Positions 17,704 through 35,273 of a stretch of DNA of 39,230 nucleotides are shown here, piece after piece. Within the stretch, counting starts at the first letter, position 1. The number at the start of each line of letters is the position of its first letter. A model generated the notes under the pieces. The model saw nothing but the letters and a program-made list of their open reading frames with translations. It was not told the DNA's origin and made no database searches. The stretch comes from Pseudomonadota bacterium (GTDB lineage Bacteria; Bdellovibrionota_B; Oligoflexia; Silvanigrellales; Silvanigrellaceae). The DNA lies in NCBI GenBank assembly GCA_039799905.1, contig JBDLRP010000011.1, forward strand, positions 1 through 39,230, in the 5' to 3' direction. A program made the position numbers and the translations under genes.

Positions 17704-19166
17704 GCCACAAACTCATCCCTGACGCCAAGTCCATCAACCTGCGGAGCGATGACCTGTCGATGCTCTCGGAGGTTGAACGTTCACTGGCGCTTGAGCAGGC
17801 CCGCTTGCAGTTGGAACAACGCTCACAAGGCGGCATGAACGCCTACCTTGTCAGTGTCGAGCTGATTGATGACGACCCTCAACAAATTCAAGAAAGCTTG
17901 GTTGAGCTCGGCAGTCTTGTGCGTTCGCTTGGCGACGAACCCGTCGGAGTGACGGTGCAAAAGCGCTCGCGCATCGTGCCGGCCACGCTGATTGGCACCG
18001 GCAAGGCCGAGGAACTGCGCAATTCGGCCAAAGAACTGAAAATCGATTACGTCGTTTTTGATCAGGAACTTTCGCCTTCGCAAGTGCGCAACCTCGAGCA
18101 AATCATCGAACGGCCGATTCTCGATCGTGCCGGAGTCATCCTGCAGATTTTTCGTAAAAACGCCAAAACCCGCGAGGCCAAGACTCAAGTCGAAATTGCG
18201 CATCTCGAATACCTCGCGCCGCGTATTTCCAACTCGTGGATCGCATTCGAACGGCAGCGCGGTGGCGGCTCGGGCGGCACCCGCTTGAAGGGTGCGGGCG
18301 AAACCCAACTCGAGCTCGACAAACGTCGCATCCGCGAAAAAATCGCGTCACTTCGCAAAGACCTCGAACGTATCCAGACCGAACGCAGCACCCAGAGGAA
18401 ACTGCGCTCGGAGGAATTCAACGTTGTGCTGGTGGGCTATACAAACGCCGGAAAGACAACCCTTATGAACGCTCTGACGGACAGTCATCTGTCTGCCAAA
18501 GACGCGCTTTTTGAAACCCTCGATTCAGCGGTGCGCACGCTCAAGGGTTCGCACAATCCGCGCGTGCTGGTCACCGACACCGTTGGCTTCATCCGCAGCA
18601 TCCCGCATGGCTTGGTTGCAAGCTTCCGATCGACGCTGCAGGAGGCAGCACGCGCGGATTTGCTGATTCACGTCGTTGATGTCAGCCATCCGCGCTACAA
18701 AGACCACATCCGTGTGACCGACGACGTGCTCAAAGAAGTTGGTGCCGGAGACGTCGACCGCATGTACGTCTTTAACAAAATCGACTCGCTGAAAGGCGAA
18801 CCGCGGTTGGCAAAAATTCTTGCGCGCGCCTACAAAAACGCAGTCTGCGTCAGTGCACAACAACCCGACGACATCCGCAAGCTGCGCGACGCGCTGATGG
18901 AATACTTCAGCCGCAATATGCTCGAAATTTCCCTCAATGTTGCATACGACGACAGTTCCCTTATGGGGCATATCTATGCGCACTCACGCGTCATGGCCAC
19001 CGAATGGACCGATGCCGAAGCCCGCTTCCGTATCCGCATCTCGCGCGCCAATGCGCGCCGTTACTTTATAACCCACATGTCGGCTGCCGACTTGACCCGC
19101 TACGGACTCAACCAAGACGATGAAGATGAACACACCAGTGTCGTACCGGAGACGATGAGACCATGA
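17700..19166 (+). CDS. hflX: Ribosome rescue GTPase HflX
   Basis: IGTGKAEEL, LSPSQVRNLE, GETQLELDKR, GYTNAGKTT, DTVGFI and NKID. The TTG start overlaps the upstream stop. Confidence 0.96.
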   Translation: MSHKLIPDAKSINLRSDDLSMLSEVERSLALEQARLQLEQRSQGGMNAYLVSVELIDDDPQQIQESLVELGSLVRSLGDEPVGVTVQKRSRIVPATLIGTGKAEELRNSAKELKIDYVVFDQELSPSQVRNLEQIIERPILDRAGVILQIFRKNAKTREAKTQVEIAHLEYLAPRISNSWIAFERQRGGGSGGTRLKGAGETQLELDKRRIREKIASLRKDLERIQTERSTQRKLRSEEFNVVLVGYTNAGKTTLMNALTDSHLSAKDALFETLDSAVRTLKGSHNPRVLVTDTVGFIRSIPHGLVASFRSTLQEAARADLLIHVVDVSHPRYKDHIRVTDDVLKEVGAGDVDRMYVFNKIDSLKGEPRLAKILARAYKNAVCVSAQQPDDIRKLRDALMEYFSRNMLEISLNVAYDDSSLMGHIYAHSRVMATEWTDAEARFRIRISRANARRYFITHMSAADLTRYGLNQDDEDEHTSVVPETMRP

Positions 19167-19519
19167 CAAATCAACAAATCCAAACAATTGCACCGGCTGT
19201 CATCGGCGACAAAACCGTGCCCGAGAGCATTCATGAAAAGACACTCGAGTTGAGAGAAGTAGAAACCAGACTGGGTCATTTGCCCGCTGAAACATGGGCC
19301 GTTTCGGATCTGCACAAGCGCTTCAGCGATCCTACACAGCTCTCGCACACGTCGTTTTTGGAGCAACGCACCGATCAGCTGTTTCGTGAAATCGCAGGCG
19401 AGCTGCATGATCTTGGTTGGACGCTTGCCGAAATTGTTCAGGCCATCAACTCGGTGGTCTGCTATTCAGGCGGTCCCAAATACTGCAACGAACAAGAGGT
19501 TGCAGAGGTCCTCGGATGA
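19163..19519 (+). CDS. Hypothetical protein (118 aa) coupled between hflX and murB
   Basis: ATGA overlaps with both hflX and murB. No family recognised. Confidence 0.75.
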   Translation: MTNQQIQTIAPAVIGDKTVPESIHEKTLELREVETRLGHLPAETWAVSDLHKRFSDPTQLSHTSFLEQRTDQLFREIAGELHDLGWTLAEIVQAINSVVCYSGGPKYCNEQEVAEVLG

Positions 19520-21174
19520 CATCGGAGCGCATTCCGGAATCCATTGTTGGATCGAAGGCTGTTGCCTCGATCACCTACTACGGCATCGGCGGGCACGCAG
19601 AGCATTTTGCACAGCCCCGCTCACTGCGTGAATTGATTGATTGCATCGAGTGGGCCAAAGCAAAGCAACTTCCGATTGCGTTGTTCGGTTGCGGGAGCAA
19701 TTCTTTGCTCGCCGATGGTCCTTTCAACGGGCTCGTCCTGACCCTGTCGCAGATGACCGCCTGTTATTGGGAAACCGAGGACATTCTCTACGCCGAAGCA
19801 GGCGTCAGCAACACTGAAATTGCGGAAATCTGCTTGGATGCCGGCCGCAGCGGCGCAGCGTGGATGTACCGCATGCCGGGTCATCTGGGTGCCACAGTGC
19901 GCATGAATGCGCGCTGTTATGGAGGAGAAATTTCGCAAATCTGCGAAGAGGTTTTCACCCTCGATCTGCAAGGCAGGCTGCGCGTCTACCGCGGCACCGA
20001 TGTGTTTTACGGATACAAGAAAACCCTCCTGATGGACACTCCTGAGGTGGTCGTCGCTGCGCGACTGAGGCTCTCAGAAAGTGCGGAACACGCGTCCATT
20101 CTCAATATCATGCAGTCATGTGAGGCGGACAGACACCGCAAGCATCACTTTGATTTGCCAAGCTGCGGTTCAACCTTCAAAAATAATTATCAGGTCGGCC
20201 GCCCGAGCGGACAGGTGTTTGATGAATGCGGACTCAAGGGAGCGCGCATCGGTCGCTCCGAAGTCAGCCAGTACCACGCCAATTTTGTGTGGAATCTGGG
20301 CGGCGCGAGCGCACGCGACATGCTGTCGCTGGCGGCGCACATGCGCGAACGCGCCCTGACGATGCGTCATGCAGATCTCGAACTTGAAGTGCAGCCCGTG
20401 GGGCTGTTTGATGATCCTCTGTTTTCAGCCTGTGCAATGAACAAACTCGGCCCTTCCGTGAGTGAAGGAAATTCGCATTGGGTCGGGTTGCTATGGCATC
20501 CGGCGAGCGTACAGCAAAAAGAATCGCTTCCGGATTTTCCGCATTCACTTCTACAATCCCCGTTCCAACACTATTTCCGAACTCCCCTGTCTGGCCAACC
20601 CGACGTCCGCGTCGAACTCACCCAACTGATGAGTTTGAGCGATGCCGAGCTTCAACCTGACCGACCGTTTTTGCGCTGGGAGACAATCACTCCAAGTGCC
20701 GAGCACACCAGCAGGCTCTTTCAAGTACGCCCGCAGTCGCCGGTCGGATTTTTGGATGAATTGTGGAACTACAGTGTGAGTGAATTGTTTGTCGCGCACG
20801 GAAACGCCGACAACGGAGAGTACTACGAATTCGAAATGACCCCCGACGGACACTGGATCGCCATTGCATTTGATGCTCCGCGCAAACGCAAGGCCGAACA
20901 CACACGTCCCGACAAACATCACTGGAACGGTATTTCAATCAAGCAAGGACAAACAAAATTCTCTGCGGAATTCAGCTATAGCCTGCTCAAACCACTGATT
21001 CATCTGGGCCAATTGCGAATACAGGCGTGTCTGAGTCTGGGCGGTGAAGGCTGGTATCTGGCACCCCATTGGTCGCCGTCCGGCAGCCCAGAGTGCTGGG
21101 ACACACAACATAAACCCGATGTCAAACCAGATTTCCATCAGCCGCAGCGCTTCTGGCGTGTTGCATTGCACTGA
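19516..21174 (+). CDS. murB: UDP-N-acetylenolpyruvoylglucosamine reductase MurB fused to a C-terminal DOMON-like domain
   Basis: GCGSNSLL, MPGHLGATVRMNA, PSCGSTFKN, HANF and LELEV. The C-terminal LWNYSVSELFV...YYEFEMTPDGHW...PDFH pattern is DOMON/CBM9-like. ATG 19516 overlaps the upstream stop. Confidence 0.9.
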   Translation: MTSERIPESIVGSKAVASITYYGIGGHAEHFAQPRSLRELIDCIEWAKAKQLPIALFGCGSNSLLADGPFNGLVLTLSQMTACYWETEDILYAEAGVSNTEIAEICLDAGRSGAAWMYRMPGHLGATVRMNARCYGGEISQICEEVFTLDLQGRLRVYRGTDVFYGYKKTLLMDTPEVVVAARLRLSESAEHASILNIMQSCEADRHRKHHFDLPSCGSTFKNNYQVGRPSGQVFDECGLKGARIGRSEVSQYHANFVWNLGGASARDMLSLAAHMRERALTMRHADLELEVQPVGLFDDPLFSACAMNKLGPSVSEGNSHWVGLLWHPASVQQKESLPDFPHSLLQSPFQHYFRTPLSGQPDVRVELTQLMSLSDAELQPDRPFLRWETITPSAEHTSRLFQVRPQSPVGFLDELWNYSVSELFVAHGNADNGEYYEFEMTPDGHWIAIAFDAPRKRKAEHTRPDKHHWNGISIKQGQTKFSAEFSYSLLKPLIHLGQLRIQACLSLGGEGWYLAPHWSPSGSPECWDTQHKPDVKPDFHQPQRFWRVALH

Positions 21175-21228
21175 CCGTCGGGTCACAATAACGCTCTGAG
21201 AAGAGTTTTATTCACAACGGGTGCACAT

Positions 21229-22734
21229 ATGCTCAGCCTCGGACAGCGCAAAAGCATTCACATTCTGAAAGCCGGCACCGCGACCTGCACATTCGCACTT
21301 CTCGCATGGTCGACGTCCTGTAAGCCGCGCGCCTACAACGACAACCAGACACAGTCCAAAAATGGCCGTCCAACATTGAGTAAAACAGCAGAGGCGCAGG
21401 CGCAGTCACTGCTTCCATTTTGGCCGGTCCCACAAAACATCAGCGAAGTCCGAGCGCTGCCAATGGTCACAGCTCTCGGTGTCAGCACCCAGACATGGCA
21501 AAAGCTTTTGTCGGAGGCGCTGAGCGACAGCACCGGACGAACGATGACTTTGTCGAACCCCGAGTGCGCCCTCTCAGCCGACTCTTGGCGGATTTCAGCG
21601 GCCCGACTGGCCCTGTATGAAATCGATCTCCCCGGCAGTGTGACTTCGTGGCAGACTTTTGCGTTGCAACGGGAAACCGATCTCTCGCAACGTGTGCAGC
21701 TGCATGTCAGCATTCAGCCATGGTGCACCAGCCAACGTTTGGGACGCGGCGACTTTATTCACACGCTTGATCATGCCTTTTTGCTCACGTTTGACCTCAG
21801 CACTCAATTTTTATCCAAAAACTACCTGAGCTGGCTCGAAGAATTGCTCAACAAGAGCAATCAGCAAGACGCCCTCACCACGCTACCAGAGAACAAGGTC
21901 CTGCCATTTGCCCGAGCTTTGCTCGACGTGAATGACGGCCGCCTGGGCCGGTCTGAGATCTTGCGCGCTTGGAATCAGGCTCTGCTTGTAAAAGAGCTCA
22001 CATCACGGTCGGCCCTGCCCTCGGCCGGCTGGACGTTCTATAAGCAACAAACCTCGAACGGGCAGATGCTCGCTCAGCAGGCAGATGGCAGCGGCGAGCT
22101 TTCACATCCGGCCCTCAAGGCATCTTCCATCGCGTTGAACAACTTTTTCAATACCTTTGTCTCGGAAAAGAACCTCATCCGCGTGCGTGCTCACGTCACC
22201 GAGGGTCTCGGGTCTTCTCAGCGCTTTCTCCGTTGGGAACGGCAGGAAAGCAAAATAGTACGTTTCCCGATGCAAACCGTCGCGTCTCAGTGGGACCGCT
22301 CGGCGCGTACCGTAAGTCTTAACCCGTTGCTGAGCTCGCCGCAAAAAGTGGTGAGTGTCGGAACCGAACAACCCGTTGCAGGACAGCAAAAATCTCAGCT
22401 GCTGCGCGACGTCGATCTCGAGGCCACGCCACTGGCGAATGATATTGCAGTTCCCGAACTGCTTTCCCTGAACGATAAAATTGTGGATTCCGAGCGAACA
22501 TCAGTACATTCAACTCGCTGCGTCAGCTGCCACGGACTCGATGATGCATTGCGCATGGCGCGTGATGGACGTCCTGTTTCGCAACGCGGCATAGCTCCGG
22601 CGCAACTCACTCTGTTTGGCGTCAGCGCGGACGGGAAGCAAGTGACTAACACCAGAACCATGCGCGCCGCCGAAGGCGATGCGCGCCGTAACGAAGAAGA
22701 AGCCATCAATGCCCGACAGCCTGCCCAACGATAA
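21229..22734 (+). CDS. Lipoprotein with a single C-terminal c-type heme motif (CVSCH)
   Basis: Lipobox-like LLAWSTS-C(KPR). CVSCH at 22519-22533. Confidence 0.75.
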   Translation: MLSLGQRKSIHILKAGTATCTFALLAWSTSCKPRAYNDNQTQSKNGRPTLSKTAEAQAQSLLPFWPVPQNISEVRALPMVTALGVSTQTWQKLLSEALSDSTGRTMTLSNPECALSADSWRISAARLALYEIDLPGSVTSWQTFALQRETDLSQRVQLHVSIQPWCTSQRLGRGDFIHTLDHAFLLTFDLSTQFLSKNYLSWLEELLNKSNQQDALTTLPENKVLPFARALLDVNDGRLGRSEILRAWNQALLVKELTSRSALPSAGWTFYKQQTSNGQMLAQQADGSGELSHPALKASSIALNNFFNTFVSEKNLIRVRAHVTEGLGSSQRFLRWERQESKIVRFPMQTVASQWDRSARTVSLNPLLSSPQKVVSVGTEQPVAGQQKSQLLRDVDLEATPLANDIAVPELLSLNDKIVDSERTSVHSTRCVSCHGLDDALRMARDGRPVSQRGIAPAQLTLFGVSADGKQVTNTRTMRAAEGDARRNEEEAINARQPAQR

Positions 22735-22945
22735 GCACATTCAGTTTGACACGCTGACGAACCAACAACGCCATGACATCAAGGCAGCGCTGCTGTCGAT
22801 CAAATGGTCGGCCGAACTGCTCAAACCGCCAGACGGCTCGCAACCCCCGTGTGAGCTCATCTCAGATCAGCTCACACACGCCTTCGAAATATTGCGGCCG
22901 CTCGTCGAACAGATCCTTACTGCGAAAGGAACAGGCAGCGAATGA
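22709..22945 (+). CDS. Small stand-alone HisKA (DHp)-like protein
   Basis: RHDIKAALLSIKWSAELLK resembles an H-box helix and is followed by a second helix. It overlaps the upstream gene and has an ATGA overlap with the response regulator. Confidence 0.6.
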   Translation: MPDSLPNDKHIQFDTLTNQQRHDIKAALLSIKWSAELLKPPDGSQPPCELISDQLTHAFEILRPLVEQILTAKGTGSE

Positions 22946-24405
22946 TTTCTCTTTTTCATCTTGATGACGATGCATTATTTTTGCATCGCTGCGCGCAGGC
23001 ATTTCGTAACTCACCGCATGCGGCGCACGTCAATTACACTTCGGTACGTACTGCCGATGACTTTCGCAAGGAATTTGCCGCAGCACGACCAACTGCAGTT
23101 CTGCTCGACCTGAGCTTCGGCGGACATGCACTGCGCGGAATCGAAATTCTCAAGGAAATCCGTGGACAGGGTTACAACGGCACAGTGATAATGATGTCAG
23201 CCCTGAGCTCTTCGGACGTCATTATGGAATGCATCCGCGCCGGTGCAAATGACTTTCTCTCCAAAGGACTCGACGAATCGGAAATGACCTTCCGAGTCGC
23301 CCGACTTTTGCAGAGCAGCCGAGTCGATCCTTCCTCCGGAGAGCCGGCTGGTCCGATACTCCCCGCACATGTGAGCGGGCGCTCTCTCCGCGAGGTTCAG
23401 CAGCGTCTCAACCGCATCCGCAATTCAACGGTTAAAACCCTTCTTGTGTCTGGAGAGAGCGGCACCGGCAAGGAAATGGTGGCGGAAATTTTACGTCTGC
23501 AACTCCCACAGGGAACGCCTTTTGTTTCGGTGAACTGTGCCGCACTGACACCGTCGGTCGTCGAAGCTGAAATATTTGGTTACGAAAAAGGTGCCTTTAC
23601 TGGCGCCAACACTTCAAAAATCGGCCTCTATGAAGCAGCCGATGGCGGCTGGTTGTTTCTTGATGAAGTGGCGCGTCTCAGCCCGTCCGCTCAGGCAGCA
23701 CTGCTCAGGGCACTCGAAAACGGTGAAGTTCGGCCTGTCGGAAGTACCCGGACTAAAAAGGTAAACGTACGAGTTGTTGCAGCCACGAATGAACCGCTCG
23801 ACACAATGATCGATCGCGGAGAATTCCGTGCGGACCTGCTCACACGCCTGCGCGGCTACGAGATCTGCCTGCCGCCACTGCGCGCACGCAGCCATCAGGA
23901 ACGGCAGGAAATCATCGAATCTCTTTTGTCGCGACTCAACGAGTCGCTCGGCTTGGACGAACAGGAGTACCGCATCGCATCGAGTTGCCTTTCAGTGCTG
24001 ACAGATCTTCCTTGGTCACAGGGCAACGTGCGCGAGTTATGGCAGACTCTTCAGGCCATGAGTGTCGATGCAACCGACGGGGTCATTACGCTTGAGCACC
24101 TTCCCAAACGCTATCTGGATGCGCGTGCCAAGGCAGCTCCCAGCGTCCCCAATCAACCTGAAGACATCGCACAGCTCGAAAAAGACTTGCCGGCAGACTC
24201 ACCTCGGCGCCTGTCCGCCGTTCTCAGGCCGAGCTTTCCCTGCAACTTTGAGGGAATGGTGGATGTCATATTCGAACACGTTTACGCCCAGCTGTGCAAA
24301 TCACTGGGCGACGAAACACCCAGTCAGCGGACCGTCGCACAGCTGATGAATATCAGCCGCCACGAGGCTGCTCAGAGGGTGGCCCGTCTGCAAAAGACTC
24401 CTTAA
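22942..24405 (+). CDS. Sigma54-dependent NtrC-family response regulator (REC-AAA+-HTH)
   Basis: REC (HLDDD...LLDLS...MMSA...FLSKG), GESGTGKE, GAFTGA, LFLDEV, GNVREL and a C-terminal HTH-like segment SQRTVAQLMNISRHEA. Confidence 0.95.
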   Translation: MISLFHLDDDALFLHRCAQAFRNSPHAAHVNYTSVRTADDFRKEFAAARPTAVLLDLSFGGHALRGIEILKEIRGQGYNGTVIMMSALSSSDVIMECIRAGANDFLSKGLDESEMTFRVARLLQSSRVDPSSGEPAGPILPAHVSGRSLREVQQRLNRIRNSTVKTLLVSGESGTGKEMVAEILRLQLPQGTPFVSVNCAALTPSVVEAEIFGYEKGAFTGANTSKIGLYEAADGGWLFLDEVARLSPSAQAALLRALENGEVRPVGSTRTKKVNVRVVAATNEPLDTMIDRGEFRADLLTRLRGYEICLPPLRARSHQERQEIIESLLSRLNESLGLDEQEYRIASSCLSVLTDLPWSQGNVRELWQTLQAMSVDATDGVITLEHLPKRYLDARAKAAPSVPNQPEDIAQLEKDLPADSPRRLSAVLRPSFPCNFEGMVDVIFEHVYAQLCKSLGDETPSQRTVAQLMNISRHEAAQRVARLQKTP

Positions 24406-24457
24406 GCCTGTCCGTAGAAGTTCCAGTGACGACGTGTATCGATGGAGAGAGAGAATC

Positions 24458-25465
24458 ATGAAACAAATTCGAATCATTCCAGCCACAGTCATCGTCGCCT
24501 CTCTCCTCTTCGCAACTTCCGCATGCAAACAGAGGACTTTTTCAAACAACAAATCCGGAGGAGTCGTCAATCCCGACGCACCTCAGGTCTGTACCGAAAA
24601 ACTCGACAAAGATGCTCCCTATTCTGCTGGTGAATTTAAGAAGAAGCTCGTCGAGGCCTTTCACAAGGCCGTGAAAAGTGGAAACCTCAGGGAAGAGAAT
24701 CTGCGCGACTTTTTATTTGCTGATGAGGTTGAGGCTGCGCTCAAGGGACAACTCGAAATCTCCATCGATGACTGTGCCCTCACCCGCACCATCAACGAAT
24801 CTCTGACAAAGCCTTCCTACTTTTACTGGCTCTCCGGCAACGGCCGCACGACCGAGGGAGGCATGACGCTCTATAAAGGCACTGTGTATGCGGAGGGCTT
24901 TTACCGTTGTCGTGCTGCCGGCGTCACCAGTGCGATTTTTCCACGCCGCGCATACAATCTTAAAGAGTTGATGACTCAACAGCCTTGGCTCGAATGGAAC
25001 AAGGAAACACGTTCATTCAATGCCCGTGTCGGCTCTCCTGTCGCCCGTATTGTACAGGCCATCCAAGAGGATCAGGGCAACAACTCTATCACCCTGCACC
25101 GCGGTACCAACACAGTTTATTCAGCCAAAGAAAAGGCTCTTGCGACAGCCAACAGCTTCCGCTTTGGAGATTTCGGCGGCATATTCACGACACCCTCTTA
25201 TGAAGCCGCAAAGGGATGGGCGAATCCAGTGGTGCTGAGTGCGAAAATTGATCCGGGCGATTTTATAAAGGCCGCCACAACTGCCAATCCGGACAAGGGT
25301 GATGTTCCGAGTATTTACGTCGGAATCGAATATAGCTACCCGGAAATTGCATTTCTGTATGAAGCTGGTGACAGCAGCAATTTATTCTTCAACTCTATCA
25401 GGGCAAAATGCGTTACAGAAAAAGCGCAGGGAGCTGATAAAAACTTCGCCCAGCCGTGCAAATGA
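24458..25465 (+). CDS. Lipoprotein with a putative C-terminal ADP-ribosyltransferase-like domain
   Basis: Lipobox FATSA-C. C-terminal TLHRGT, GIFTTPS and IEYSYPEI motifs. ATG 24458 follows GGAGAG. Confidence 0.6.
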   Translation: MKQIRIIPATVIVASLLFATSACKQRTFSNNKSGGVVNPDAPQVCTEKLDKDAPYSAGEFKKKLVEAFHKAVKSGNLREENLRDFLFADEVEAALKGQLEISIDDCALTRTINESLTKPSYFYWLSGNGRTTEGGMTLYKGTVYAEGFYRCRAAGVTSAIFPRRAYNLKELMTQQPWLEWNKETRSFNARVGSPVARIVQAIQEDQGNNSITLHRGTNTVYSAKEKALATANSFRFGDFGGIFTTPSYEAAKGWANPVVLSAKIDPGDFIKAATTANPDKGDVPSIYVGIEYSYPEIAFLYEAGDSSNLFFNSIRAKCVTEKAQGADKNFAQPCK

Positions 25466-25579
25466 CTTTTACTTTACAAAAATGCCGTCCAGCCGAAGAG
25501 AGTTTGCCGCAGATCCTCATTACAGCAAACGGTCGGCGGTAACAGGATTGTTTCAACGCATCAACGTCAGGGGTGAGCA

Positions 25580-26188
25580 ATGTCGAATGTCAGGTCCACG
25601 GGCTTTTTTCTTTCTTTATTCATTCTAGTGTCGGGCGCGGTTGGCTGCAAAAAGCCTCAAGGCGATCCGTCACAGGATTCCAATCCGGCATCCATCGAGA
25701 ACGTGACCGGATGTGAAGAAGGACTGGCACGATGGTTGTGTCGACCCAAATCTGAAATCTTCTTTGCTGTGCGGATTGACAATGATTATTGTTTTTACAT
25801 CACCCGATACGTCGGGAATTTTGGCGAAACCGATGCGCGGCACGTGGCCGATTTATACAGAAACAGCAAATTCACGACACAGTTCCCAAAATTCCAGCCG
25901 AAAAAGGTAGGCCGGAACTACATCCTTTCGAGCCTCAAGAATTCAATCGAACAATCGGGAGAGGACACTGCCTATCTCAAAAACAAGTATCTGGACGTTC
26001 TCAAGACCGAGCTCGATTATGCGGATAAGACGCCGGGCAAAGTCAATCTCAATGCGAAGTACGTTAAGAAAGTGGGCGACGTACACATCGAAGGGCTGGC
26101 AAATTGGACCGTTCAACTGATGCGAGAAGCCCCTCCCACCTCGGGACGGGCTTGTCCTCAGCCTCAGGACCTGCAGGGCAGTCGCTAG
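25580..26188 (+). CDS. Hypothetical lipoprotein
   Basis: Signal peptide with lipobox GAVG-C(KK). Four further Cys. GGGG/GAG precedes the ATG. Confidence 0.75.
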   Translation: MSNVRSTGFFLSLFILVSGAVGCKKPQGDPSQDSNPASIENVTGCEEGLARWLCRPKSEIFFAVRIDNDYCFYITRYVGNFGETDARHVADLYRNSKFTTQFPKFQPKKVGRNYILSSLKNSIEQSGEDTAYLKNKYLDVLKTELDYADKTPGKVNLNAKYVKKVGDVHIEGLANWTVQLMREAPPTSGRACPQPQDLQGSR

Positions 26189-26367
26189 GCCCGCTTCATT
26201 TGCGGGATCTGCAGAAGCTTTTCACACAGCAATCCTTGCGGCCTATTGTATGCAAACGGAACAATGCCGTAGAAACCCTGCGCAGCGAACGCCTGCCATT
26301 GGCGGGCATCGTGACCCCAAACCTGCCTGATGCCGAAGTGCAACTGAAAGATAAATTGGCGACCGCA

Positions 26368-26393
26368 TCGCAATGCTCAAAGCTGCATTGCGA
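26368..26393. promoter_or_regulatory. Perfect 9-bp inverted repeat upstream of a lipoprotein gene
   Basis: tcgcaatgc-tcaaagct-gcattgcga, followed by an AT-rich tract. Confidence 0.35.
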
Positions 26394-26432
26394 CAAATCA
26401 TATATTTCATTCTCTTAAGTTTTTTAATCATT

Positions 26433-27041
26433 TTGACGACCAATAAACGAGTTTTTGGTCGAGGGCCAATCATGATGATGTCTGCAGGCACCGCTTTAGC
26501 ACTCGGAGTGATCGTGTTTACAGGCTGCCGTGACGGAGAAACGGCTGCAGATGCCGACGCACAGGCGATCAAGCGCTACCAGAGCAACGGACAGTTCGTG
26601 ATAGCAGCACAAAAACCAGACGACATGTCGATTGTCGACGCCGGCAACAGACAGGTGTCTTTCCGCACCGCAACCGGAAAAAACGGAACCATCTCCTTCA
26701 TCAACAATGGCGAATATTACCTCATTTCCATCCGGCAGGCACTCGCCGACGGACTGGGGGCGTGGGTTTCAGGTCAGGCCATGCGTGATGTGTTTTTGAT
26801 ACCGAAAGTCAACGGACGCAAGGACCCCAATATCAGCGCCGCAAAGGCCGAAAACTGGAAAATTGAACGCATCGTTTCCGATTCAAAAAGTTTCGCAGAC
26901 ATAAAAGGGATCAAAATCTATTGCCCCACGCGCATTGAGTTTCGTAAAAAAGACGGCAAACCACACGTTTCAGAGTTTCCGGCGCGCGCAAATTGCGCAG
27001 ACGACATCAATGCAGACATTGCCTCAGTGACTTACAAATAG
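26433..27041 (+). CDS. Hypothetical lipoprotein
   Basis: ALALGVIVFTG-C(RD) lipobox. Start uncertain: TTG 26433 gives a basic n-region, ATG 26472 is the alternative. Confidence 0.7.
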   Translation: MTTNKRVFGRGPIMMMSAGTALALGVIVFTGCRDGETAADADAQAIKRYQSNGQFVIAAQKPDDMSIVDAGNRQVSFRTATGKNGTISFINNGEYYLISIRQALADGLGAWVSGQAMRDVFLIPKVNGRKDPNISAAKAENWKIERIVSDSKSFADIKGIKIYCPTRIEFRKKDGKPHVSEFPARANCADDINADIASVTYK

Positions 27042-27091
27042 ATACAGGTCTGCACGTGACACGTCACCGCTTAGAGTGCAACAATTAATGT

Positions 27092-27814
27092 TCAAAGGCT
27101 GTTAATGTACTCAAGAAGATCTTTCCGCTCTTCTGCCGACAGCGTCTTCCTTCGCGGCATTGAACCGCTCCTTACTTCCTTGCGGATGTCACCTTTCTTT
27201 CTACGCCACTGGCTCACTGTTTCCAGCCGTGGGCTCTCCCCACCTGCTGAATGACAACCAATACAAAGCAACCTTGCAGTCTCGAATGTAAATTTTGCTG
27301 CCTGAGCCGGCGGCGCTGGTTGAGCAGCTGAGCCCGCAAGAAGTTTGTCCAAAAATGCGATCATCCTTGCTTTATCAGTCGCTGAAAGTGTCTGCGGAGG
27401 AGGAGGCATACGGTCAGATACGACTGCAGATCGTGATGCATTTGCAAACGCGGCCCAGTCGGCCTCATTTCCACCTGCTTTATCCCAGACACGTGCGCCT
27501 GACGCTCCTGGCTGATGGCAGGCAACACACCTTGCCTTGGCCTCGTCCAACGTCATCGCATTCGCTGAGTTACCTGAACCCGGATTACCTCCGCCATTTG
27601 CAGAACCCGGAGGAGGGTTTTCTGCTGCCGGTGGGGAACCCGACGGAGCGTTTCCGGAAGCACCATCCACATGACCGGAATCTTTTTTCGAACTAACCGT
27701 CGGCACCTGTTTTGATTCGAGTTTCTTTTGAGCTGCATCGCCTGTTGTCGGAACCTGACCACAGGCACTCAGAGCGGCCAGCACAAAAGCTGACAAAAAC
27801 AATGATAAACCCAT
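27092..27814 (-). CDS. Diheme c-type cytochrome lipoprotein
   Basis: Lipobox LSA-C, a Gly/Ser/Pro linker, then two modules CVACH...MPP and CIGCH...MPR. Start ATG 27814 or TTG 27826. Confidence 0.85.
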   Translation of the reverse strand: MGLSLFLSAFVLAALSACGQVPTTGDAAQKKLESKQVPTVSSKKDSGHVDGASGNAPSGSPPAAENPPPGSANGGGNPGSGNSANAMTLDEAKARCVACHQPGASGARVWDKAGGNEADWAAFANASRSAVVSDRMPPPPQTLSATDKARMIAFLDKLLAGSAAQPAPPAQAAKFTFETARLLCIGCHSAGGESPRLETVSQWRRKKGDIRKEVRSGSMPRRKTLSAEERKDLLEYINSL

Positions 27815-27934
27815 TCCTGCCCCCAATAAGAGCCGTATCGGATCTGTTGAAATCCCGATTGAGTATTTTCACAATTCTCTTTTTTCTCAGAGATTTATCA
27901 TGAACTTTTCCGGACAGAAAATTTCGCAAAAATC

Positions 27935-28660
27935 TCAATATCGCGGGTATGGGTCAATTCCGGAGTTTTTTAAAAATGTTTCAACCTTGATCAGACGACG
28001 CTTTTGATCGGCGCGGATAAGCGACTCATCATTGTTGAAACGCCCGACGTCCTCGAATGCATTTGAATCTGGATCACGGTAGGAATCGACCGACAGCTGG
28101 ATGAGTGTCTCGAGTGAAATCCCTTGCACCTTGAGGGTCGACATCCGGTCCAAGAATCCTTTGCGATCGGTCGCTGCAAGCGGACTTTGTGTGAGCAAAG
28201 TAAAGAACGCGCCGGCCAGCATCGGATGATTTGCGGGAAGCAGTGCTCCGCGTGCCGCATCCGCGAATCGAGCTCTGAGCGGCTTGATCTTGGCATCCAG
28301 ATAATACTGATCAGCCTCTTCTGCCGACCTTTCGCCACAGACAATGCAACTGAACAGACCAACATTGCGTCGCCCCGAATCACCGTGACCATAATATGCC
28401 TGTGTCGGCGAACCGTTGAGGTTGATTGTGCCCTCGGCGTGTCCAATTGCGAGAATCAAAACAGATTTGGGCGTGCGAATAGCCTCGCTCACATCGAAAT
28501 CAATTGTGACAGAGGCATCACGCTGCGGGCCGACCGGAGCTGCCGGCCGAGCCGTTGCCACAGGCGCAACGCGGCGGCCAACCCTCAGTGTGTTCTGGCA
28601 AGCGGCAACAAAAAAACAGACAGGTACGATGACCGCCACCAGACTGTTTTTCATCAACAT
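27935..28660 (-). CDS. Hypothetical lipoprotein, possible lysozyme-like fold
   Basis: Lipobox FVAA-C. Conserved-looking AIGHAEGT...AYYGHGD...NVGLFS and DQKRR motifs. Confidence 0.7.
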   Translation of the reverse strand: MLMKNSLVAVIVPVCFFVAACQNTLRVGRRVAPVATARPAAPVGPQRDASVTIDFDVSEAIRTPKSVLILAIGHAEGTINLNGSPTQAYYGHGDSGRRNVGLFSCIVCGERSAEEADQYYLDAKIKPLRARFADAARGALLPANHPMLAGAFFTLLTQSPLAATDRKGFLDRMSTLKVQGISLETLIQLSVDSYRDPDSNAFEDVGRFNNDESLIRADQKRRLIKVETFLKNSGIDPYPRY

Positions 28661-28687: not shown

Positions 28688-30262
28688 TTAATCACGCAGA
28701 GGACGGCGTCCGCCCGGAGCAATCCACTCCTTGTAACGCGCCATTTCTTGCGGAGTCGGATTCGCCTTGCGGAACTTCTTGCCGTTCAGAGAAACCTCAA
28801 TGCGTCGATTTGCCGCACGCCCCTGTTTGGTTGCATTGCTGGCGATCGGAAAACGGAACGCAGAGCCCGATGTCGTGATGATTTCCGGAGTGACGTCCCG
28901 CTCGATCAAAGCCTTGCGCACTGCATCCGCACGGCGCTTCGAGAGAGCCATGTTGACGTCCAGTGAACCGACAGAGTCTGTATGGCCTTCGATGTGAATC
29001 GCTGTCGGCTTTTCGATTTCAAGCCGGTCTTTGAGCTCCTGAATTGTTTTCATCGCCTGCGGCGTAAGCTCAGCACTGCCAAATTTGAATCTGACGTAAC
29101 CAACATCAACAATCTGGCCACCCACCAGCAGCTTGAGAAGACTTTCATCGCTCGCCAGCTGCCGCGGTGCCTCTTCGGCACGGCTGTCAGCAAGAATCCG
29201 ATCAAGGTCGACATCAGAATAGGCGGGCAAGGCATCGCGTGGATCAAAGACATCCACCGATTCCGACTCCTTCACGCCGCCGGATGTATAGCGAAGACCA
29301 GCCATAACTCGAAACAAGGGCGATCCGACTCCACGCCCCAAGGCAGTGCCCACAGACGCGTGATACGTCATGTTGGTTTCTGCCAGATATCGGGCACCGA
29401 AGGCCCATTCCCATGGGTTGCCCGCACTGCTCAATGAAAGAAATCCCTGACTGAACTCGGCTTTAAGTCCAGCTTCCAGCGAAAGATGCCCCTTTGTCCG
29501 CGGCGTTCCCTGCAGACTCCATTGAAAACTGCTGTCCCAGCTCACAGCATAGCTGCGTGCCAAAAGTGTTTTTCGCCCGCCAGTGAAGCCAGTTTCTCCG
29601 ACAACTCTTTCACGATCACCCCAAATGATGATCCCAGGGGTCAGGCTGACTTCCCAATCACCTGTCGTTGAAAACAGCGAACTCGGAATGCTGATTTTGG
29701 TTCGGGTCGTTCCGTCCGAAAGAAGCGCTTTTCTGTCGCCCAACGGCAGACGAATCTCACCTGAAATGGCGTGTGTTCCAGCCAGGTCAGTTCCCCAGTC
29801 AAGGAGTTTGTATTTGAGCCCGATCCGCGGATCGGACAAAAGTAAAAACTGCCGCGAGCCGCCGACCTCGAGAAGATAATTTTCCGGATTTTCGTGAATG
29901 TTCAACAGCGCAATCGGCAGCACTCCGGACAACTCGATCTCAGGCAACAACGCATAGGCGGCCGACGCATGAGTCATCAACAGATGATCGACAACTCCAA
30001 ACCGTGTGTCCTTGCCATCACCCAACTCAACCGGCCTGAGAACATAATCCACCGTCGCGCCGTACATCCATGCCTTATGTGGAATGACGTGCGGTGTCTC
30101 GTTGAGCAGTGCCGAGGAGTTACCTGCGGCAGGCGCAAAGTTCTCGGAATTGAAACCAAGGGCGTGTGCCTTTTGCACAACTGGCGCCGAGACGCAAAAA
30201 GCTGCAAGTTGCAAAAGCCGGAAAGCGGATCTCAAAACTTTTCTACTCTTGTCTGAATTCAT
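28688..30262 (-). CDS. Outer-membrane beta-barrel protein with a C-terminal OmpA peptidoglycan-binding domain (TraB-like architecture)
   Basis: Signal peptide (AHA-LG), amphipathic strands ending FRVMAGLRY, then OmpA_C motifs IEGHTDSVG...NMALSKRRADAV...NATKQGRAANRRIE. ATG 30262 overlaps the upstream stop. Confidence 0.88.
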   Translation of the reverse strand: MNSDKSRKVLRSAFRLLQLAAFCVSAPVVQKAHALGFNSENFAPAAGNSSALLNETPHVIPHKAWMYGATVDYVLRPVELGDGKDTRFGVVDHLLMTHASAAYALLPEIELSGVLPIALLNIHENPENYLLEVGGSRQFLLLSDPRIGLKYKLLDWGTDLAGTHAISGEIRLPLGDRKALLSDGTTRTKISIPSSLFSTTGDWEVSLTPGIIIWGDRERVVGETGFTGGRKTLLARSYAVSWDSSFQWSLQGTPRTKGHLSLEAGLKAEFSQGFLSLSSAGNPWEWAFGARYLAETNMTYHASVGTALGRGVGSPLFRVMAGLRYTSGGVKESESVDVFDPRDALPAYSDVDLDRILADSRAEEAPRQLASDESLLKLLVGGQIVDVGYVRFKFGSAELTPQAMKTIQELKDRLEIEKPTAIHIEGHTDSVGSLDVNMALSKRRADAVRKALIERDVTPEIITTSGSAFRFPIASNATKQGRAANRRIEVSLNGKKFRKANPTPQEMARYKEWIAPGGRRPLRD

Positions 30263-32019
30263 GAATGAAGCCTCCCGGAACGATCCGCAGAGCGTCTCCA
30301 CGACCTGCGCACAAAAAGCAGAGGCACGGCGAGAAGTAGAAGCATCAGATGCGTGGCCCGTCCCGATGGGGTATTGGTTTTATCTTCGCCAATCACACCG
30401 CAGTTTCCGGTTCCACCCTGCAGGCGGAGCCGGCTGAACGATTCAAGACTGTCCGACTCACCGACAATGCCAAACTCATTCGCCAGCCGATTTCCCTCGT
30501 CGGCATTGCGATAATCACGCAACTGACCCGACGGCGAGGGAGCCGCGTAGAATCCATCCCCCTTGGGATCTTTGCTGCCAATCAAATCGCCGTCCACAGT
30601 GCGGCCCTCGTCGATGGCCTTGCAGGTCATCGTGTTGTCTGTCGAATTTCCGACAACGATTGTGAACGTCGACGATGCTGACGAGTTTCCATCCTGATAG
30701 ACAGGCGTAACCTTCACGGTGTTGCTGCCATCTTGCAGACCAACAAACTTGATATCAAAGTTGCTTCCCGGCGCTGAGGGCGACACGGCGTTGTAGGTCA
30801 GCTTGCCGCCGGATGCCGGCGTGACTTCCACACGCACGAAGCGCAGGGCGTTCTTGTCGAATTGGGCAAACAATCCATCAAGACCGGCAGTCAGCTGCGA
30901 CTGCCCGCGCGCATAATTGAACTTCACCTTGCCGTTGCCGGTGCGCGCGCTGTTTTCAATCAAAAATCCAGCCGGATTCAGTGTCGCCTTGCCTTCATCA
31001 TCAAAATCAAAATAAGCCACCTGATTCTCGGTAAAGAGAATGTGGTGAACGTTCACCTCGCCGTAGGGTGCCGTCAGAGCTTCCGTATGCGCGGCAGCAA
31101 TCGACTGTGGCGCCTGCCTGTCCACACAGTATTCCTGCACCCTGCCCAATCTTTCGCCGCTGACAATCGCCTCGTTTTTGAGACGCGGCGAATTGCGGCA
31201 GGTAGCTGCGGCGACATATTTGGGAACATTCGGAAGACCATCAGTCACCACAATCACGTTGCGGCCGACGCCTGCTGCGTTGTTCACCTTCTCGTATGCC
31301 TTTTTTGTTCCCCTGAAAAAATAGGTGAAATCCGTTGAGCCGCGCGGCATCCGCACTGCGAAGTCAACAAAGCTCTTCATGTTGTTGATGGCCGCAGCAT
31401 CGGCGGCGGATGCAAACGGCAAATTTTCGCAGATGGAGATTTTAGACGAGTCGGCAGGCGTTCCCCAACGGGCCGTTGCATTCGAAGAAGGAAATATGTC
31501 GGTCGTCTCAGTGCAATAATCCGGTTCGAATCGAGCGTTCAAAACATCTTCAGGCTGATCGGAGAACTCGGTCCCGGAGCGTCCGTTGTAGTTCGTCACC
31601 GCCAGCTGCGGGTACGATGCATTTCCCGGGGCAACTCCTGAGCTTTGGGCAGCAGTCACAAACTTCGAAATGAATTCCTGCACCGCGGGTCCACGTTTGG
31701 CGCCCACATCGGTGGTTTCCTCGCTTTTGGAGTTGTCTACAATGAGCATCACCTGACCGCGCATCTGATTTGCGGGCTGGAAACAGTTGCTCACCGACCA
31801 GTTGAACGCCACCGGACCGGTGGCGCCAGTCGCGCGGCTGATGTTGATGGTCGCATTGTTCACGAGATTCGTGGCTGTCCCGCTGCCGGGAATACAATCA
31901 CGCGTGCTGGCCACAGGTTCGCAGCGAGAAAAGCTCGCTGCGGAGGCAGAGGCGGGCAAGACAGCCAGAGCCACTCCGGAAAGAAGCTTCACGGGACACG
32001 GCTGCAAAATCTTCCTCAC
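30259..32019 (-). CDS. Secreted VWA-domain surface protein with a MYXO-CTERM-like C-terminal sorting signal
   Basis: Signal peptide (ASA-AS). MIDAS D-x-S-x-S (LIVDNSKS, 31723-31737), T (GSTDF) and D (VVTDGLP). C-terminus GGTGNCG-spacer-hydrophobic helix-RRSWRR. GTG 32019 follows AAGGAGG. Confidence 0.82.
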   Translation of the reverse strand: MRKILQPCPVKLLSGVALAVLPASASAASFSRCEPVASTRDCIPGSGTATNLVNNATINISRATGATGPVAFNWSVSNCFQPANQMRGQVMLIVDNSKSEETTDVGAKRGPAVQEFISKFVTAAQSSGVAPGNASYPQLAVTNYNGRSGTEFSDQPEDVLNARFEPDYCTETTDIFPSSNATARWGTPADSSKISICENLPFASAADAAAINNMKSFVDFAVRMPRGSTDFTYFFRGTKKAYEKVNNAAGVGRNVIVVTDGLPNVPKYVAAATCRNSPRLKNEAIVSGERLGRVQEYCVDRQAPQSIAAAHTEALTAPYGEVNVHHILFTENQVAYFDFDDEGKATLNPAGFLIENSARTGNGKVKFNYARGQSQLTAGLDGLFAQFDKNALRFVRVEVTPASGGKLTYNAVSPSAPGSNFDIKFVGLQDGSNTVKVTPVYQDGNSSASSTFTIVVGNSTDNTMTCKAIDEGRTVDGDLIGSKDPKGDGFYAAPSPSGQLRDYRNADEGNRLANEFGIVGESDSLESFSRLRLQGGTGNCGVIGEDKTNTPSGRATHLMLLLLAVPLLFVRRSWRRSADRSGRLHS

Positions 32020-32078: not shown

Positions 32079-32227
32079 TGTTTGCCCGCACCCCAACACC
32101 CCTGCCGCTGCGAGAATCTGAGCCGTGCATCAGAGATTTGACACACCTCCGAGATTGAGCGAATTTGCTGTCATTCCCACAAGCAATCCGGCCACTGGTT
32201 GCAAAAAGCCAACCAACGGCCTCATGG

Positions 32228-34429
32228 ATGGACAACAGCATGACTTCTGGCGAACGCCCGACATCTCCGCAGCCGCTGCAGGTGACTGTCTATCTGGACT
32301 GCAACGCAACAACCCACACACATCCCATTGCACTGCAGGCTGCACGCGAGGCCATGGAGCTTTGTTACGGCAATCCAAGCTCCACCCACATGACAGGTCT
32401 GCATGCCAAATCGTTTTTGGAAAGTGCACGCGAGGCGGCGGCACAGGCCGTGGGCGCTGCTTCGGCCGACGAAATCATTTTCAACAGTGGTGCGACGGAA
32501 GGAATTCAATCTTCCATTTTTTCAGTGCTCATCCATCTGCTCGATCAGTTCCGCGAACACGGCCGACTCTCGCGTTGGAGAATCCTCTACGGCGCGACCG
32601 AGCACAAGGCAGTTCCTGCGGCCATCCATCACTGGGCCGAGCTTCTGCGCATTCCCGTTGAAATTGAAGCGATACCTGTTGATGCCGAAGGAATCCTCGA
32701 CATCGCATTCATCGAAAACCGAATCAGCGAATGCGCGCTGATCTGTACGATGGCCGTCAACAACGAAACTGGTGTCATTCAACCACTCGATCAATTGGCT
32801 CATCTCCTGAAGCAGAGTGATGCCGCTGGTTGTTTGTGGTTTGTCGACGGAGTGCAGGCGCTTGGAAAAGTACCGCTCAGTCTTGGCGATTTGGGTGCGC
32901 ACTACGCCTGCTTTTCAGGTCACAAACTCAATGCCCCCAAAGGCATCGGTTTTCTTTGGGTTCACCGTGAAGCGCCTTACACTGCAATGATCGTGGGCGG
33001 CGGCCAAGAGCGCGGCAAACGCTCGGGCACGGAAAACCTGCCCGGAGCGGCCGCATTCGGACGAATCCTGAGTGCACTCAATTCAGAAACACGTTCGATT
33101 TTCCTCAGCCACGATCAGCTCAATCAGTGCAGAGAAAAACTCATTTCAACACTCTCCCGCTGCTTTCCCACTTTGGTCTGGAATGCGAATCTGCACCGCT
33201 GCGTACCAACAACTCTCAATTTTTCGGTGGAAGGCATCTCAAGCAGAGAGCTCATGAATGCTTTTGATGCTGCTGGCGTCCGGGTCTCCGGAGGTTCTGC
33301 CTGCAGCTCGGGGCAGTCCACCGGCAGCCACGTGCTGACAGCCATGCAACTTCCAAAATGGCGCACGCTCAATTCCATCCGGCTTTCATTTGGTCCGGCC
33401 AGCAGTGAAACCGAAATCGACGCCGCCTGTCAGGCGTTGCAGCAGGCTGGTGAGGCGTTACGCGCCAGCTGCATGATTCCGAACCTCCCCGCACGCCTCG
33501 ATCAAATGAACGAAACAGTGCCCTTTGACTCAACCGGCATCAGCGAATTGCGCGCGCTGGACGGGACCCGTGCTTGGCTGCTGATGTGCCGCAATGGTGA
33601 ATCCTTTCTGGTATCTGACTGCGACCGTGCGCTCAGCGAACTCAAAACAAAACTCGCCTGTCGCGGCCTGCAAAACACGCAGATTCTTCTGATGGACGAC
33701 AGCACGGTCCAACACCCACTCACTTCCGGCTGGCGAAGGCTCAAGAGCGCTTCTGGCAACTCATTGGTTTTTGAAACCGGCGAACATCTGCTCAAAGATT
33801 CAAACAGTGCGCCGGCACTCGTTCTCTTCGCTCCCTACAAGGATTGCCTCGCGGAACTGCTGGCAGGTAAAGACGCCGGAATATTTTCAAATAAATTACT
33901 GCTCGCCTGCTTCGCCTGCGAACCAACTGCACTGACCGCCTACGAGTTTCAAGCCAATTCCGCCGGCGGTTTGGCAAAGCACAACTCATCAGCCTCCGGC
34001 GGGACTCCTCCGCAGACAGGAATCGAATGTAACAAGGTGGAACTGGCCACACGCTTGCAAAATCAATCATTCACGGTTCTCGATGTGCGCGAGGCGTTTG
34101 AGGCCGCCACCTGTCACATGGACGATATCCTGCAGCAAATTCTTGCTTTGCCCAAGGCTGAAAACAACGCGGCGAGCTCCGCATTGAACTTCAAAGTCGT
34201 GCCTCTCTCGCGTTTTGCGCAGTTCATTCTTGAGCGCCTGAGCGAACCGCGGCAGGAGAGAATTCTCTGCATTTGCCGCAGCGGACAGCGCAGCCTGCAG
34301 GCAGCCGAGCTGCTGCGCCGAATCGCAGGTTGCGAGGCTTACAGCCTGCGGGGCGGGTTGGCGGATCTCCTTGCACCCAACCTGTCTTTGCCGCCGCGCA
34401 CAGCGGACAGAGGCCTTCATGACCACTGA
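32228..34429 (+). CDS. Cysteine desulfurase (IscS/NifS-type class V aminotransferase) fused to a C-terminal rhodanese domain
   Basis: YLDCNATT, YGNPSS, EHKAV, NNETG, DGVQALGK, SGHK, RSGTEN and catalytic SGGSACSS. Rhodanese LDVRE...CRSGQRS...LRGGL. Start uncertain (32165, 32228 or 32240). Confidence 0.92.
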   Translation: MDNSMTSGERPTSPQPLQVTVYLDCNATTHTHPIALQAAREAMELCYGNPSSTHMTGLHAKSFLESAREAAAQAVGAASADEIIFNSGATEGIQSSIFSVLIHLLDQFREHGRLSRWRILYGATEHKAVPAAIHHWAELLRIPVEIEAIPVDAEGILDIAFIENRISECALICTMAVNNETGVIQPLDQLAHLLKQSDAAGCLWFVDGVQALGKVPLSLGDLGAHYACFSGHKLNAPKGIGFLWVHREAPYTAMIVGGGQERGKRSGTENLPGAAAFGRILSALNSETRSIFLSHDQLNQCREKLISTLSRCFPTLVWNANLHRCVPTTLNFSVEGISSRELMNAFDAAGVRVSGGSACSSGQSTGSHVLTAMQLPKWRTLNSIRLSFGPASSETEIDAACQALQQAGEALRASCMIPNLPARLDQMNETVPFDSTGISELRALDGTRAWLLMCRNGESFLVSDCDRALSELKTKLACRGLQNTQILLMDDSTVQHPLTSGWRRLKSASGNSLVFETGEHLLKDSNSAPALVLFAPYKDCLAELLAGKDAGIFSNKLLLACFACEPTALTAYEFQANSAGGLAKHNSSASGGTPPQTGIECNKVELATRLQNQSFTVLDVREAFEAATCHMDDILQQILALPKAENNAASSALNFKVVPLSRFAQFILERLSEPRQERILCICRSGQRSLQAAELLRRIAGCEAYSLRGGLADLLAPNLSLPPRTADRGLHDH

Positions 34430-35273
34430 TTCGGGATCTCTGCCGCTCGCGCTGCCGGTAAAAGATTTCAGTTTGAATCAGTTGACCTGCCAACTTCTCG
34501 AAACGGCCGACGGCAGCTACTCATTGCGTGTTGGAACACAACAACACAATCTGAGCGAACCAATGCACAGCTCCAAAGGCGCGTGGTCTGAGACCGTTTC
34601 TATTTACTTGCCCGCACTTGAGCACTCGCTGCCCACACGAATGTGCACGGCTGCGGGTGTTGAGTCAGGTCAACTCTGGACTATTGCCTCCGTGGGCTTG
34701 GGCCTTGGCTATAACGAGATAATGGCAGCGGGCCTCGCCCTAAAAGAATCGCTATCCGCGCACCAACTCTATATTGAATCCTATGAGGAATATTGGGAAC
34801 TAGCAGATTCTTTCCGCCGCCACTTCATCGGCACACAGCGACTGCCCAAAGACCACCCTCTGAGCACAGTCTATGCGGACACCTGCCGCCGGACAGCAGA
34901 GCTTTTCGGGATTTCCGAAACGACACTTCACAAATTCATCAACCAACTTTTGATTGAAGGAAGAATAATTCTTAATTCCCGACTCGACACAAAGACTTTG
35001 AACGTCACCGACGCGTCAAGAGAGAAGTTCGGATGCATCCTGTTTGACGCATTTAGTCCGGCGTCGAGTCCGGATTTGTGGGAGGCACACTTACTGGAAT
35101 CAATGGTCACATCAATGCCAGCCCAGACTTGCGTCTTCGCAAGCTATGCAAGCAGGACGGTGCTAAAAAAGATTCTCCGCACAGCAGGTTTTGTGGTTCA
35201 CAAACGAACAGGTTTTGCGGGAAAACGTGAATCCACTTTTGCAGTGCGCGAGCATAAAAGTCCTTCGGAATAA
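34419..35273 (+). CDS. MnmC/MnmD-type SAM-dependent methyltransferase (tRNA mnm5s2U34 family)
   Basis: TADGSYSL...EPMHSSKGAWSET, VGLGLGYN, LFDAFSPASSPDLW and GFAGKRES. ATG 34419 overlaps the end of the desulfurase gene. Confidence 0.85.
   Translation: MTTDSGSLPLALPVKDFSLNQLTCQLLETADGSYSLRVGTQQHNLSEPMHSSKGAWSETVSIYLPALEHSLPTRMCTAAGVESGQLWTIASVGLGLGYNEIMAAGLALKESLSAHQLYIESYEEYWELADSFRRHFIGTQRLPKDHPLSTVYADTCRRTAELFGISETTLHKFINQLLIEGRIILNSRLDTKTLNVTDASREKFGCILFDAFSPASSPDLWEAHLLESMVTSMPAQTCVFASYASRTVLKKILRTAGFVVHKRTGFAGKRESTFAVREHKSPSE

Follow-up and report, generated by a model that had tools for sequence, protein, structure and literature searches.

Within a 39,230-nucleotide stretch of a Silvanigrellaceae genome (hereafter the window; positions 1 to 39,230 of contig JBDLRP010000011.1, assembly GCA_039799905.1), two coupled genes on the minus strand, here called A and B, were found to encode a predicted surface adhesin with a VWA domain and an outer-membrane barrel protein homologous in its barrel to TraB of Myxococcus xanthus. 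We read the pair, with a probability of about 0.6, as a unit dedicated to attachment, whose metal-dependent VWA adhesin would be displayed on the surface and held by a TraB-type barrel anchored to peptidoglycan. The two genes are single-copy, keep a conserved position, are linked wherever A was found and are fused into one reading frame in some relatives. The pair does not belong to the TraAB family, and membrane exchange by it is unlikely.

Gene A (30259..32019) encodes 586 amino acids, comprising a signal peptide, the VWA domain within an immunoglobulin-like (Ig-like) sandwich, a stalk and a cysteine-containing C-terminal tail of the sorting type. The GTG at 32019 is its likely start, since a good Shine-Dalgarno sequence (AAGGAGG) lies immediately 5' of it. 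Gene B (28688..30262) encodes 524 amino acids, with a signal peptide, the barrel, an acidic linker and an OmpA_C domain. The stop of A (TGA) and the start of B (ATG, with GGAGG upstream) overlap in an ATGA at 30259..30262. This overlap, described in the first-pass annotation of the window, was recovered with both open reading frames (ORFs) on the minus strand, and it is not conserved, as relatives showed other overlaps, gaps or fusions. Both genes occur once in genome G000. The signal peptides of A and B were called by eye; that of A is likely of type I and covers approximately residues 1-26 (31942..32019, ending in ASA/A), where the structure model has low confidence. A scan for promoters and terminators returned no more signals than shuffled sequence did. 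Contigs from RNA libraries covered parts of A and B (X19, n=4; X20, n=1), which, without a silent-stretch control, was not counted as evidence.

The VWA domain of A spans residues 83-389 (30853..31773) and contains two cysteine-bearing insertions. While the Pfam match to VWA_2 was weak (E 0.004, below the cut-off), the AlphaFold2 model (mean predicted local distance difference test, pLDDT, 81.8) matched VWA folds over residues 83-390, with VIA Z values of approximately 18 to many of them and, for SpaC (6m48), a Z of 18.4 at a root-mean-square deviation (rmsd) of 3.0 over 208 aligned residues. SpaC, PitA and integrin beta were also the top Foldseek matches. D95, S97 and S99 of a DNSKS motif, together with T229 and D260, would by motif and position form the metal ion-dependent adhesion site (MIDAS); of the aligned rows that cover these positions, all 30 keep the first four and all 31 keep D260. 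The complete MIDAS-type VWA domain of the first-pass annotation is upheld by the model and the conserved residues. The C-terminal half of the Ig-like sandwich follows (residues 390-458, 30646..30852; assigned from the secondary structure of the model and Foldseek), and strands at residues 29-77, ahead of the VWA domain, likely pair with it to complete the sandwich, as in integrin-beta and pilus-tip adhesins. A thus resembles the pilus-tip proteins SpaC, PitA, RrgA and Mfa5 and the integrin beta headpiece in carrying a VWA domain with a MIDAS motif and insertions inside a beta sandwich, but it comes without pilus or sortase, and identity is 8-19%. Sequence searches of solved structures gave no match for A. 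The sandwich leads into an Asp/Gly-rich stalk (residues 459-530, 30430..30645); A has 10 cysteines in total and no match to a repeat family. In homologues P0026-P0031, a 30-residue Cys/Pro-rich insertion in the stalk occurs together with extra VWA loops.

The C-terminal tail has the tripartite layout of cysteine motif, helix and arginine cluster, as had been noted in the first annotation. It consists of LRLQGGTGNCG (residues 531-541, 30397..30429; tag cysteine C540), a spacer, a hydrophobic helix (residues 556-572) and the cluster RRSWRR (residues 573-578; helix and cluster at 30286..30354), the latter two seen in both sequence and model. Among 24 close homologues of A, the 11-residue motif showed 98% mean identity, compared with 30% for spacer and helix, and QGG..CG was present in 26 of the 26 tails collected. 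The QGG-x3-CG spacing is shared with the tail of M. xanthus TraA as printed in the legend of Fig. 1F of PMC11980579. With regard to sorting machinery, G000 encodes two generic CPBP proteases (C26:76471-76776 and C29:128442-128792) and a type II secretion system (T2SS), whose GspD (426 bits, cut-off 351) lies inside a gspC-D-E-F-G cluster; the matches to GspC, GspE, GspF and GspG were below their cut-offs. The genome also has the type IV pilus secretin PilQ and a further, third secretin. Besides the tail of A, G000 yielded only one or two candidate tagged tails. One belongs to a 758-aa protein (C1:77707-79983; L122 5708-7984) with a weak M36 peptidase match, a WGCG-spacer-helix-basic tail and no adjoining barrel, which is possibly a second client of a Cys tag. 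At C41:13213-15045, a GlyGly-like tail was seen.

The linkage of the two genes was confirmed across relatives. A was found in 19 of the 61 genomes searched, all from one family, and in none of the 13 genomes of genus g5, which presumably represents the cultured Silvanigrella-like species. B lies directly downstream in all 19 genomes with A, and the barrel profile gave 20 strong matches, namely these 19 and G006, whose B runs to the contig end. The relatives are mostly metagenome-assembled genomes of Silvanigrellaceae, Silvanigrellales or Oligoflexia, so that the host lies outside the myxobacteria, as first proposed, and most sequencing runs containing the stretch are from freshwater or aquatic metagenomes. 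The pair adjoins nifS, the divergent neighbour of A, in 17 of 18 loci. Identity of A falls in parallel with that of trigger factor (91, 63 and approximately 48% for A at 97, 88 and 81% for tig), which fits vertical descent.

A and B form a single ORF in two of the 19 genomes (G013 and G014) and in the database proteins P0033, P0034 and P0038. At the junction, QGG..CG and the helix are followed by a basic loop, a second helix with an AxA-like end (a second signal peptide) and the conserved start of the barrel. In the barrel tree (45 rows, midpoint-rooted for drawing), fused and split forms come out as sister branches (G014, fused, with G020, split; support 100/99); a change between the two states has therefore probably occurred more than once. 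Weaker barrel matches were obtained in 60 further genomes of the class, from which 20 regions were fetched. Seven of them, from families f4, f9 and f17, are fusions that lack OmpA and share the QGG..CG junction (one is cut by the contig end), and 13 are stand-alone barrels. Two of the fused passengers have a VWA domain over the Pfam cut-off, one has a weak VWA match and three are full-length homologues of the latter. A separate clade (100/100) is formed by the stand-alone barrels of loci L084-L086 and L088-L096, from other Oligoflexia families and mostly with OmpA; a rough check of the position directly upstream of these barrels showed no Cys-tail gene.

The barrel of B (29279..30160) begins with a conserved GxNxE segment and is predicted to have 12 strands of the FapF/COG4313 type (model pLDDT 82). 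Against solved folds, VIA gave a Z of 22.6 for FapF (5o65; rmsd 3.5, 241 aligned) and 21.4 for the COG4313 protein Pput2725 (4rl8; rmsd 3.5, 249 aligned), both above the autotransporter rows (Z up to 19.3). In contrast to these 12-strand outer-membrane barrels, to which its identity is 10-11%, B carries OmpA_C and has a tagged adhesin as its partner, and the comparison with transport is one of fold. The peptidoglycan-binding OmpA_C domain follows at residues 391-486 (28805..29092; PF00691, E 2e-19), and no DxDxDG TSP3 repeat was seen in the linker of B or of nine homologues; the order of barrel and OmpA_C and the lack of TSP3 repeats agree with the first-pass annotation. Some relatives of the barrel matched PF13557. 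Kinship to TraB was likewise found: full-length B scored 65.8 bits against the TraB model NF033763 (cut-off 700), and the model was matched by 10 of 18 barrel-only homologues (best E 2.5e-10) and, over positions 12-309, by five of the seven OmpA-less fusions. As these relatives contribute the barrel without OmpA, the homology is that of the barrel itself, not an artefact of the OmpA domain. We consider the homology of this barrel family to the TraB barrel real, as judged by profile; the trees built contain no TraB. In sequence searches of solved structures, B retrieved OmpA domains only, and a full-length search of 1.84 billion representatives was dominated by OmpA, with approximately 14 of the top rows belonging to the family. 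Two homologue searches directed at the barrel, with capped candidate lists, gave at least three and at least two proteins, which carries no information on the range of the family. An Atlas look-up led to clusters commonest in Myxococcota (0.96; below 0.9 for a fused relative), which is a lead only. Plasmids gave no barrel match.

A Cys-tagged adhesin combined with a TraB-type barrel is a general design. A scan of metagenomes with a pattern for the last strands of the barrel gave 119 matches, for which 80 loci were returned; after removal of three weak loci, seven duplicates and 25 with less than 700 nt upstream, 45 could be scored. In nine of these, the barrel is fused to a Cys-tail protein, and in another nine it lies directly behind one (18/45). 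The Cys-tail rule fired on 30 of the 1002 ORFs in the scanned loci, and both pattern and rule, being self-made, bias the sample. The passengers were varied (TSP3-rich, MtsC-like, Ig repeats, ice-binding, TolB-like), and their tails included two over the MYXO-CTERM cut-off and one CFI-box-CTERM, with no TraA among them; QGG..C occurs in non-TraA tails as well. As most TraB-type barrels with a Cys-tagged partner have unrelated passengers, the layout by itself is no sign of exchange. In locus L128 (1667-4069), a TolB-like propeller with a CFI-box-CTERM tag (99 bits) precedes a TraB-type barrel without OmpA, i.e., another tag family with the same barrel, and in L159 (1453-3705) an ice-binding-protein domain is joined via a Cys tag to a TraB-type barrel.

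The combined layout is already in print. MXAN_5598 of M. xanthus combines an adhesin with an internal MYXO-CTERM, followed by a barrel and OmpA, and the authors of PMC11980579 liken it to TraA plus TraB. In the fused relatives G013, G014, P0033, P0034 and P0038, the adhesin likewise comes first, with the Cys tag internal and the barrel and OmpA behind it. Compared with the published description of MXAN_5598, however, the VWA passenger is much smaller, the copy in the window is split and the other Oligoflexia fusions are devoid of OmpA. Literature searches, with subscription literature largely outside their coverage, returned no paper that describes such a pair for Oligoflexia or Bdellovibrionota; the supplement of PMC11980579, as far as its text was accessible, gave no match either. 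The novelty is accordingly limited to this lineage and this head: the first-pass annotation's "possibly undescribed" holds for these two, but not for the layout. The Haft preprint (10.1101/2023.06.07.544157) and PMC13184517 served as further literature basis.

For the attachment module that we favour, a mechanism can be outlined by analogy with TraA and TraB. A would be exported by the Sec pathway and halt in the inner membrane via its C-terminal helix. C540 would probably then be lipidated, and the helix either retained or cut off by some protease that is not a recognisable myxosortase, before the T2SS of the genome would move A to the surface. There, A and B would form a 1:1 complex, with B docking A in the outer membrane and tying it to peptidoglycan, while the MIDAS of A would bind a conserved ligand, be it on a surface, on prey or on a neighbouring cell, rather than an allele-specific self ligand. 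TraA and TraB of M. xanthus are reported to form 1:1 complexes, and TraB devoid of OmpA to retain adhesion, though not exchange (PMC12045341). In the fused relatives, the hairpin of helix, basic loop and second signal peptide would allow signal peptidase to free the barrel, yielding the same two products from one chain. The prediction of the A-B complex lent weak support to binding. The pair scored 0.56 (best of three controls, 0.00), with a contact agreement between runs of at least 73% and a partner pLDDT of at least 85. The mark it passed was met by 116 of 157 solved and two of 215 mismatched pairs; however, scores of up to 0.60 held only 18 of the solved pairs and both mismatches.

Several observations weigh against this reading. 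None of the 26 tails reached the cut-off of the MYXO-CTERM model TIGR03901 (best 17.4 bits versus 20, in a distant relative), and the window's own tail gave no match to it, so the "MYXO-CTERM-like" label of the first annotation stands for the tripartite architecture and not for the model. Myxosortase (NF040914) exceeded its cut-off in none of 131 genomes; in G000, which is 94% complete, the best score was 21 bits versus a cut-off of 100. The barrel of the window, taken alone, matches no NCBIfam family, and its link to TraB comes through its relatives. Furthermore, the passengers of the distant fusions align weakly to A (hhalign probabilities 10% and 4%, E 0.003 and 0.01), and 27 of the 45 scorable metagenome barrels have no visible tagged partner, meaning that such barrels do not always work with one.

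Among the alternatives, A could be the substratum adhesin of an Agl-Glt gliding machine in place of CglB, with B as its outer-membrane holder, which we regard as rather improbable. G000 contains two Agl-Glt-like gliding clusters, each with a barrel, GltC, a long TPR protein and a GltE-like gene (C41 ~67000-77300, L116, additionally with GltG-like and TolQ-like genes; C25 ~18500-25400, L118), and, in a search without a positive control, no CglB match. The CglB model NF033757 gave no match for A itself and weak matches in four of the six homologues scanned (E 0.0008-0.027), but their 13-18 bits, versus a cut-off of 200, fit any VWA domain, and NCBIfam describes the myxobacterial CglB as a lipoprotein. 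GltC and A-B co-occur within the family, with both present in 20 genomes and neither found in the 13 genomes of g5; this shared absence is, however, probably a single loss event in g5. Across the class, GltC was found in 112 of 131 genomes, compared with approximately 27 for the tagged module. A-B is not near the glt clusters, and an OmpA domain bound to the wall would presumably impede an adhesion that moves.

TraAB-like exchange, the role proposed in the first-pass annotation, would have A bind A on a neighbour and B anchor the junction to the wall while gliding cells swap outer-membrane lipids and lipoproteins. The likeness to TraA and TraB of M. xanthus, as described in PMC3325183, PMC6372800, PMC6626042 and PMC12045341, is considerable in layout: both are two-gene operons with the partner directly downstream, TraA and A share a signal peptide and a tail of Cys motif, helix and arginines with the QGG-x3-CG spacing (PMC11980579), and TraB and B share a homologous barrel with OmpA_C, which is kept in this family. 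The A-B pair is also vertically inherited in a single copy, which matches reports on traAB (PMC6372800), and the genome has gliding-type gene clusters, exchange being reported to require motility (PMC12045341). The differences begin with the head. The defining parts of TraA are a polymorphic PA14-like domain, Cys-rich repeats and MYXO-CTERM (PMC6372800), and it has more than 70 cysteines, whereas A has a VWA/Ig head, no Cys-rich stalk and 10 cysteines. That the receptor domain is VWA rather than PA14-like or Cys-rich had been recognised at first sight and is supported by the model and by the TraA models TIGR04566 and NF033759, neither of which matched A at E up to 1. TIGR04566 was also found in none of the 131 genomes, in a search without a positive control.

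The polymorphism of the VWA domain that would go with kin recognition was not found. Among 55 A proteins (1485 pairs), head identity tracks stalk identity, and the head varies no more than the stalk does. The stalks of 244 pairs were at least 90% identical, and in none of these did head identity fall below 85% (minimum 89%); many of the sequences were taken from 90% clusters, where strongly divergent alleles would go unseen. PF09544, which we take to be linked to sit toxin loci, was not found in G000 by a search without a positive control. B differs from TraB in lacking TSP3 repeats and in its NF033763 score, and the pair differs from TraAB in a tail under the TIGR03901 cut-off, in the lack of a myxosortase over the cut-off and in its Oligoflexia host. 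The nearest relatives in other families are without OmpA, and M. xanthus TraB without OmpA is reported to keep adhesion and lose exchange (PMC12045341). Together with the unrelated passengers of the same layout and the QGG..C of non-TraA tails, these results make exchange unlikely. The idea of a TraA/TraB-like pair therefore survives in its coupled genes, TraB-homologous barrel and adhesin build, but not in a TraA domain or a myxosortase over the cut-off, and a role in recognition or exchange is not borne out. A bolder version, in which gliding Oligoflexia run TraAB-like contact and exchange with an integrin-like VWA receptor, a near-private Cys tag read by the barrel and no myxosortase, is one that we doubt even more.

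Equally doubtful is B as the export channel of A, a FapF-like barrel threading the tail or the whole unfolded chain by a two-partner route independent of the T2SS. In its favour, the closest solved fold is the polypeptide transporter FapF, the 11-residue motif ahead of the helix hardly varies, no myxosortase was found, and barrel and passenger remain together even in the forms without OmpA. However, the COG4313 small-molecule channel is as good a match as FapF (Z 21.4 versus 22.6), and a shared fold shows no function. The 10 cysteines would suggest disulfide folding in the periplasm, to a size that a 12-strand pore could not pass. In M. xanthus, TraA and TraB are reported to reach the outer membrane independently (PMC12045341), and a T2SS is present.

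With regard to the neighbourhood, a predicted lipoprotein without Pfam or NCBIfam match (27935..28660, minus strand) lies 27 nt 3' of B. It was found directly downstream in nine of the 11 close-relative loci L029-L039, the other two of which end there, and in none of seven more distant loci; it is possibly a third cistron, within the genus only. Further away, three predicted family-less lipoproteins and a di-haem cytochrome c (24434-27826) are located between a sigma-54 regulator and the A-B unit, at a variable insertion site, as most close relatives are without these genes there. The neighbouring lipoproteins, which the first-pass annotation had suggested as cargo, were rejected in this role: most are not syntenic, only the directly downstream one being so, and myxobacterial exchange is described as bulk transfer (PMC6626042). 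On the other side of A, a 754-aa NifS-type cysteine desulfurase with a C-terminal rhodanese and an overlapping Methyltransf_30 (MnmC-like) gene occupy 32165-35273 on the plus strand. A MurB of 585 aa, with approximately 250 C-terminal residues without a Pfam match, is encoded at 19417-21174 on the same strand.

On these results, the TraB barrel family is a general partner of Cys-tagged surface proteins, and the pairing reaches the Oligoflexia, where no TraA or recognisable myxosortase was found. TraAB would then be one specialised case of a wider adhesin-plus-anchor design. The small, single-client version described here bears on the binding partner of the TraB barrel and on tag processing without MrtX, for which the near-invariant 11-residue motif, the natural fused and split pairs and the natural OmpA-less forms offer ready comparisons. 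For the uncultured freshwater Silvanigrellaceae, A-B is a candidate attachment factor.

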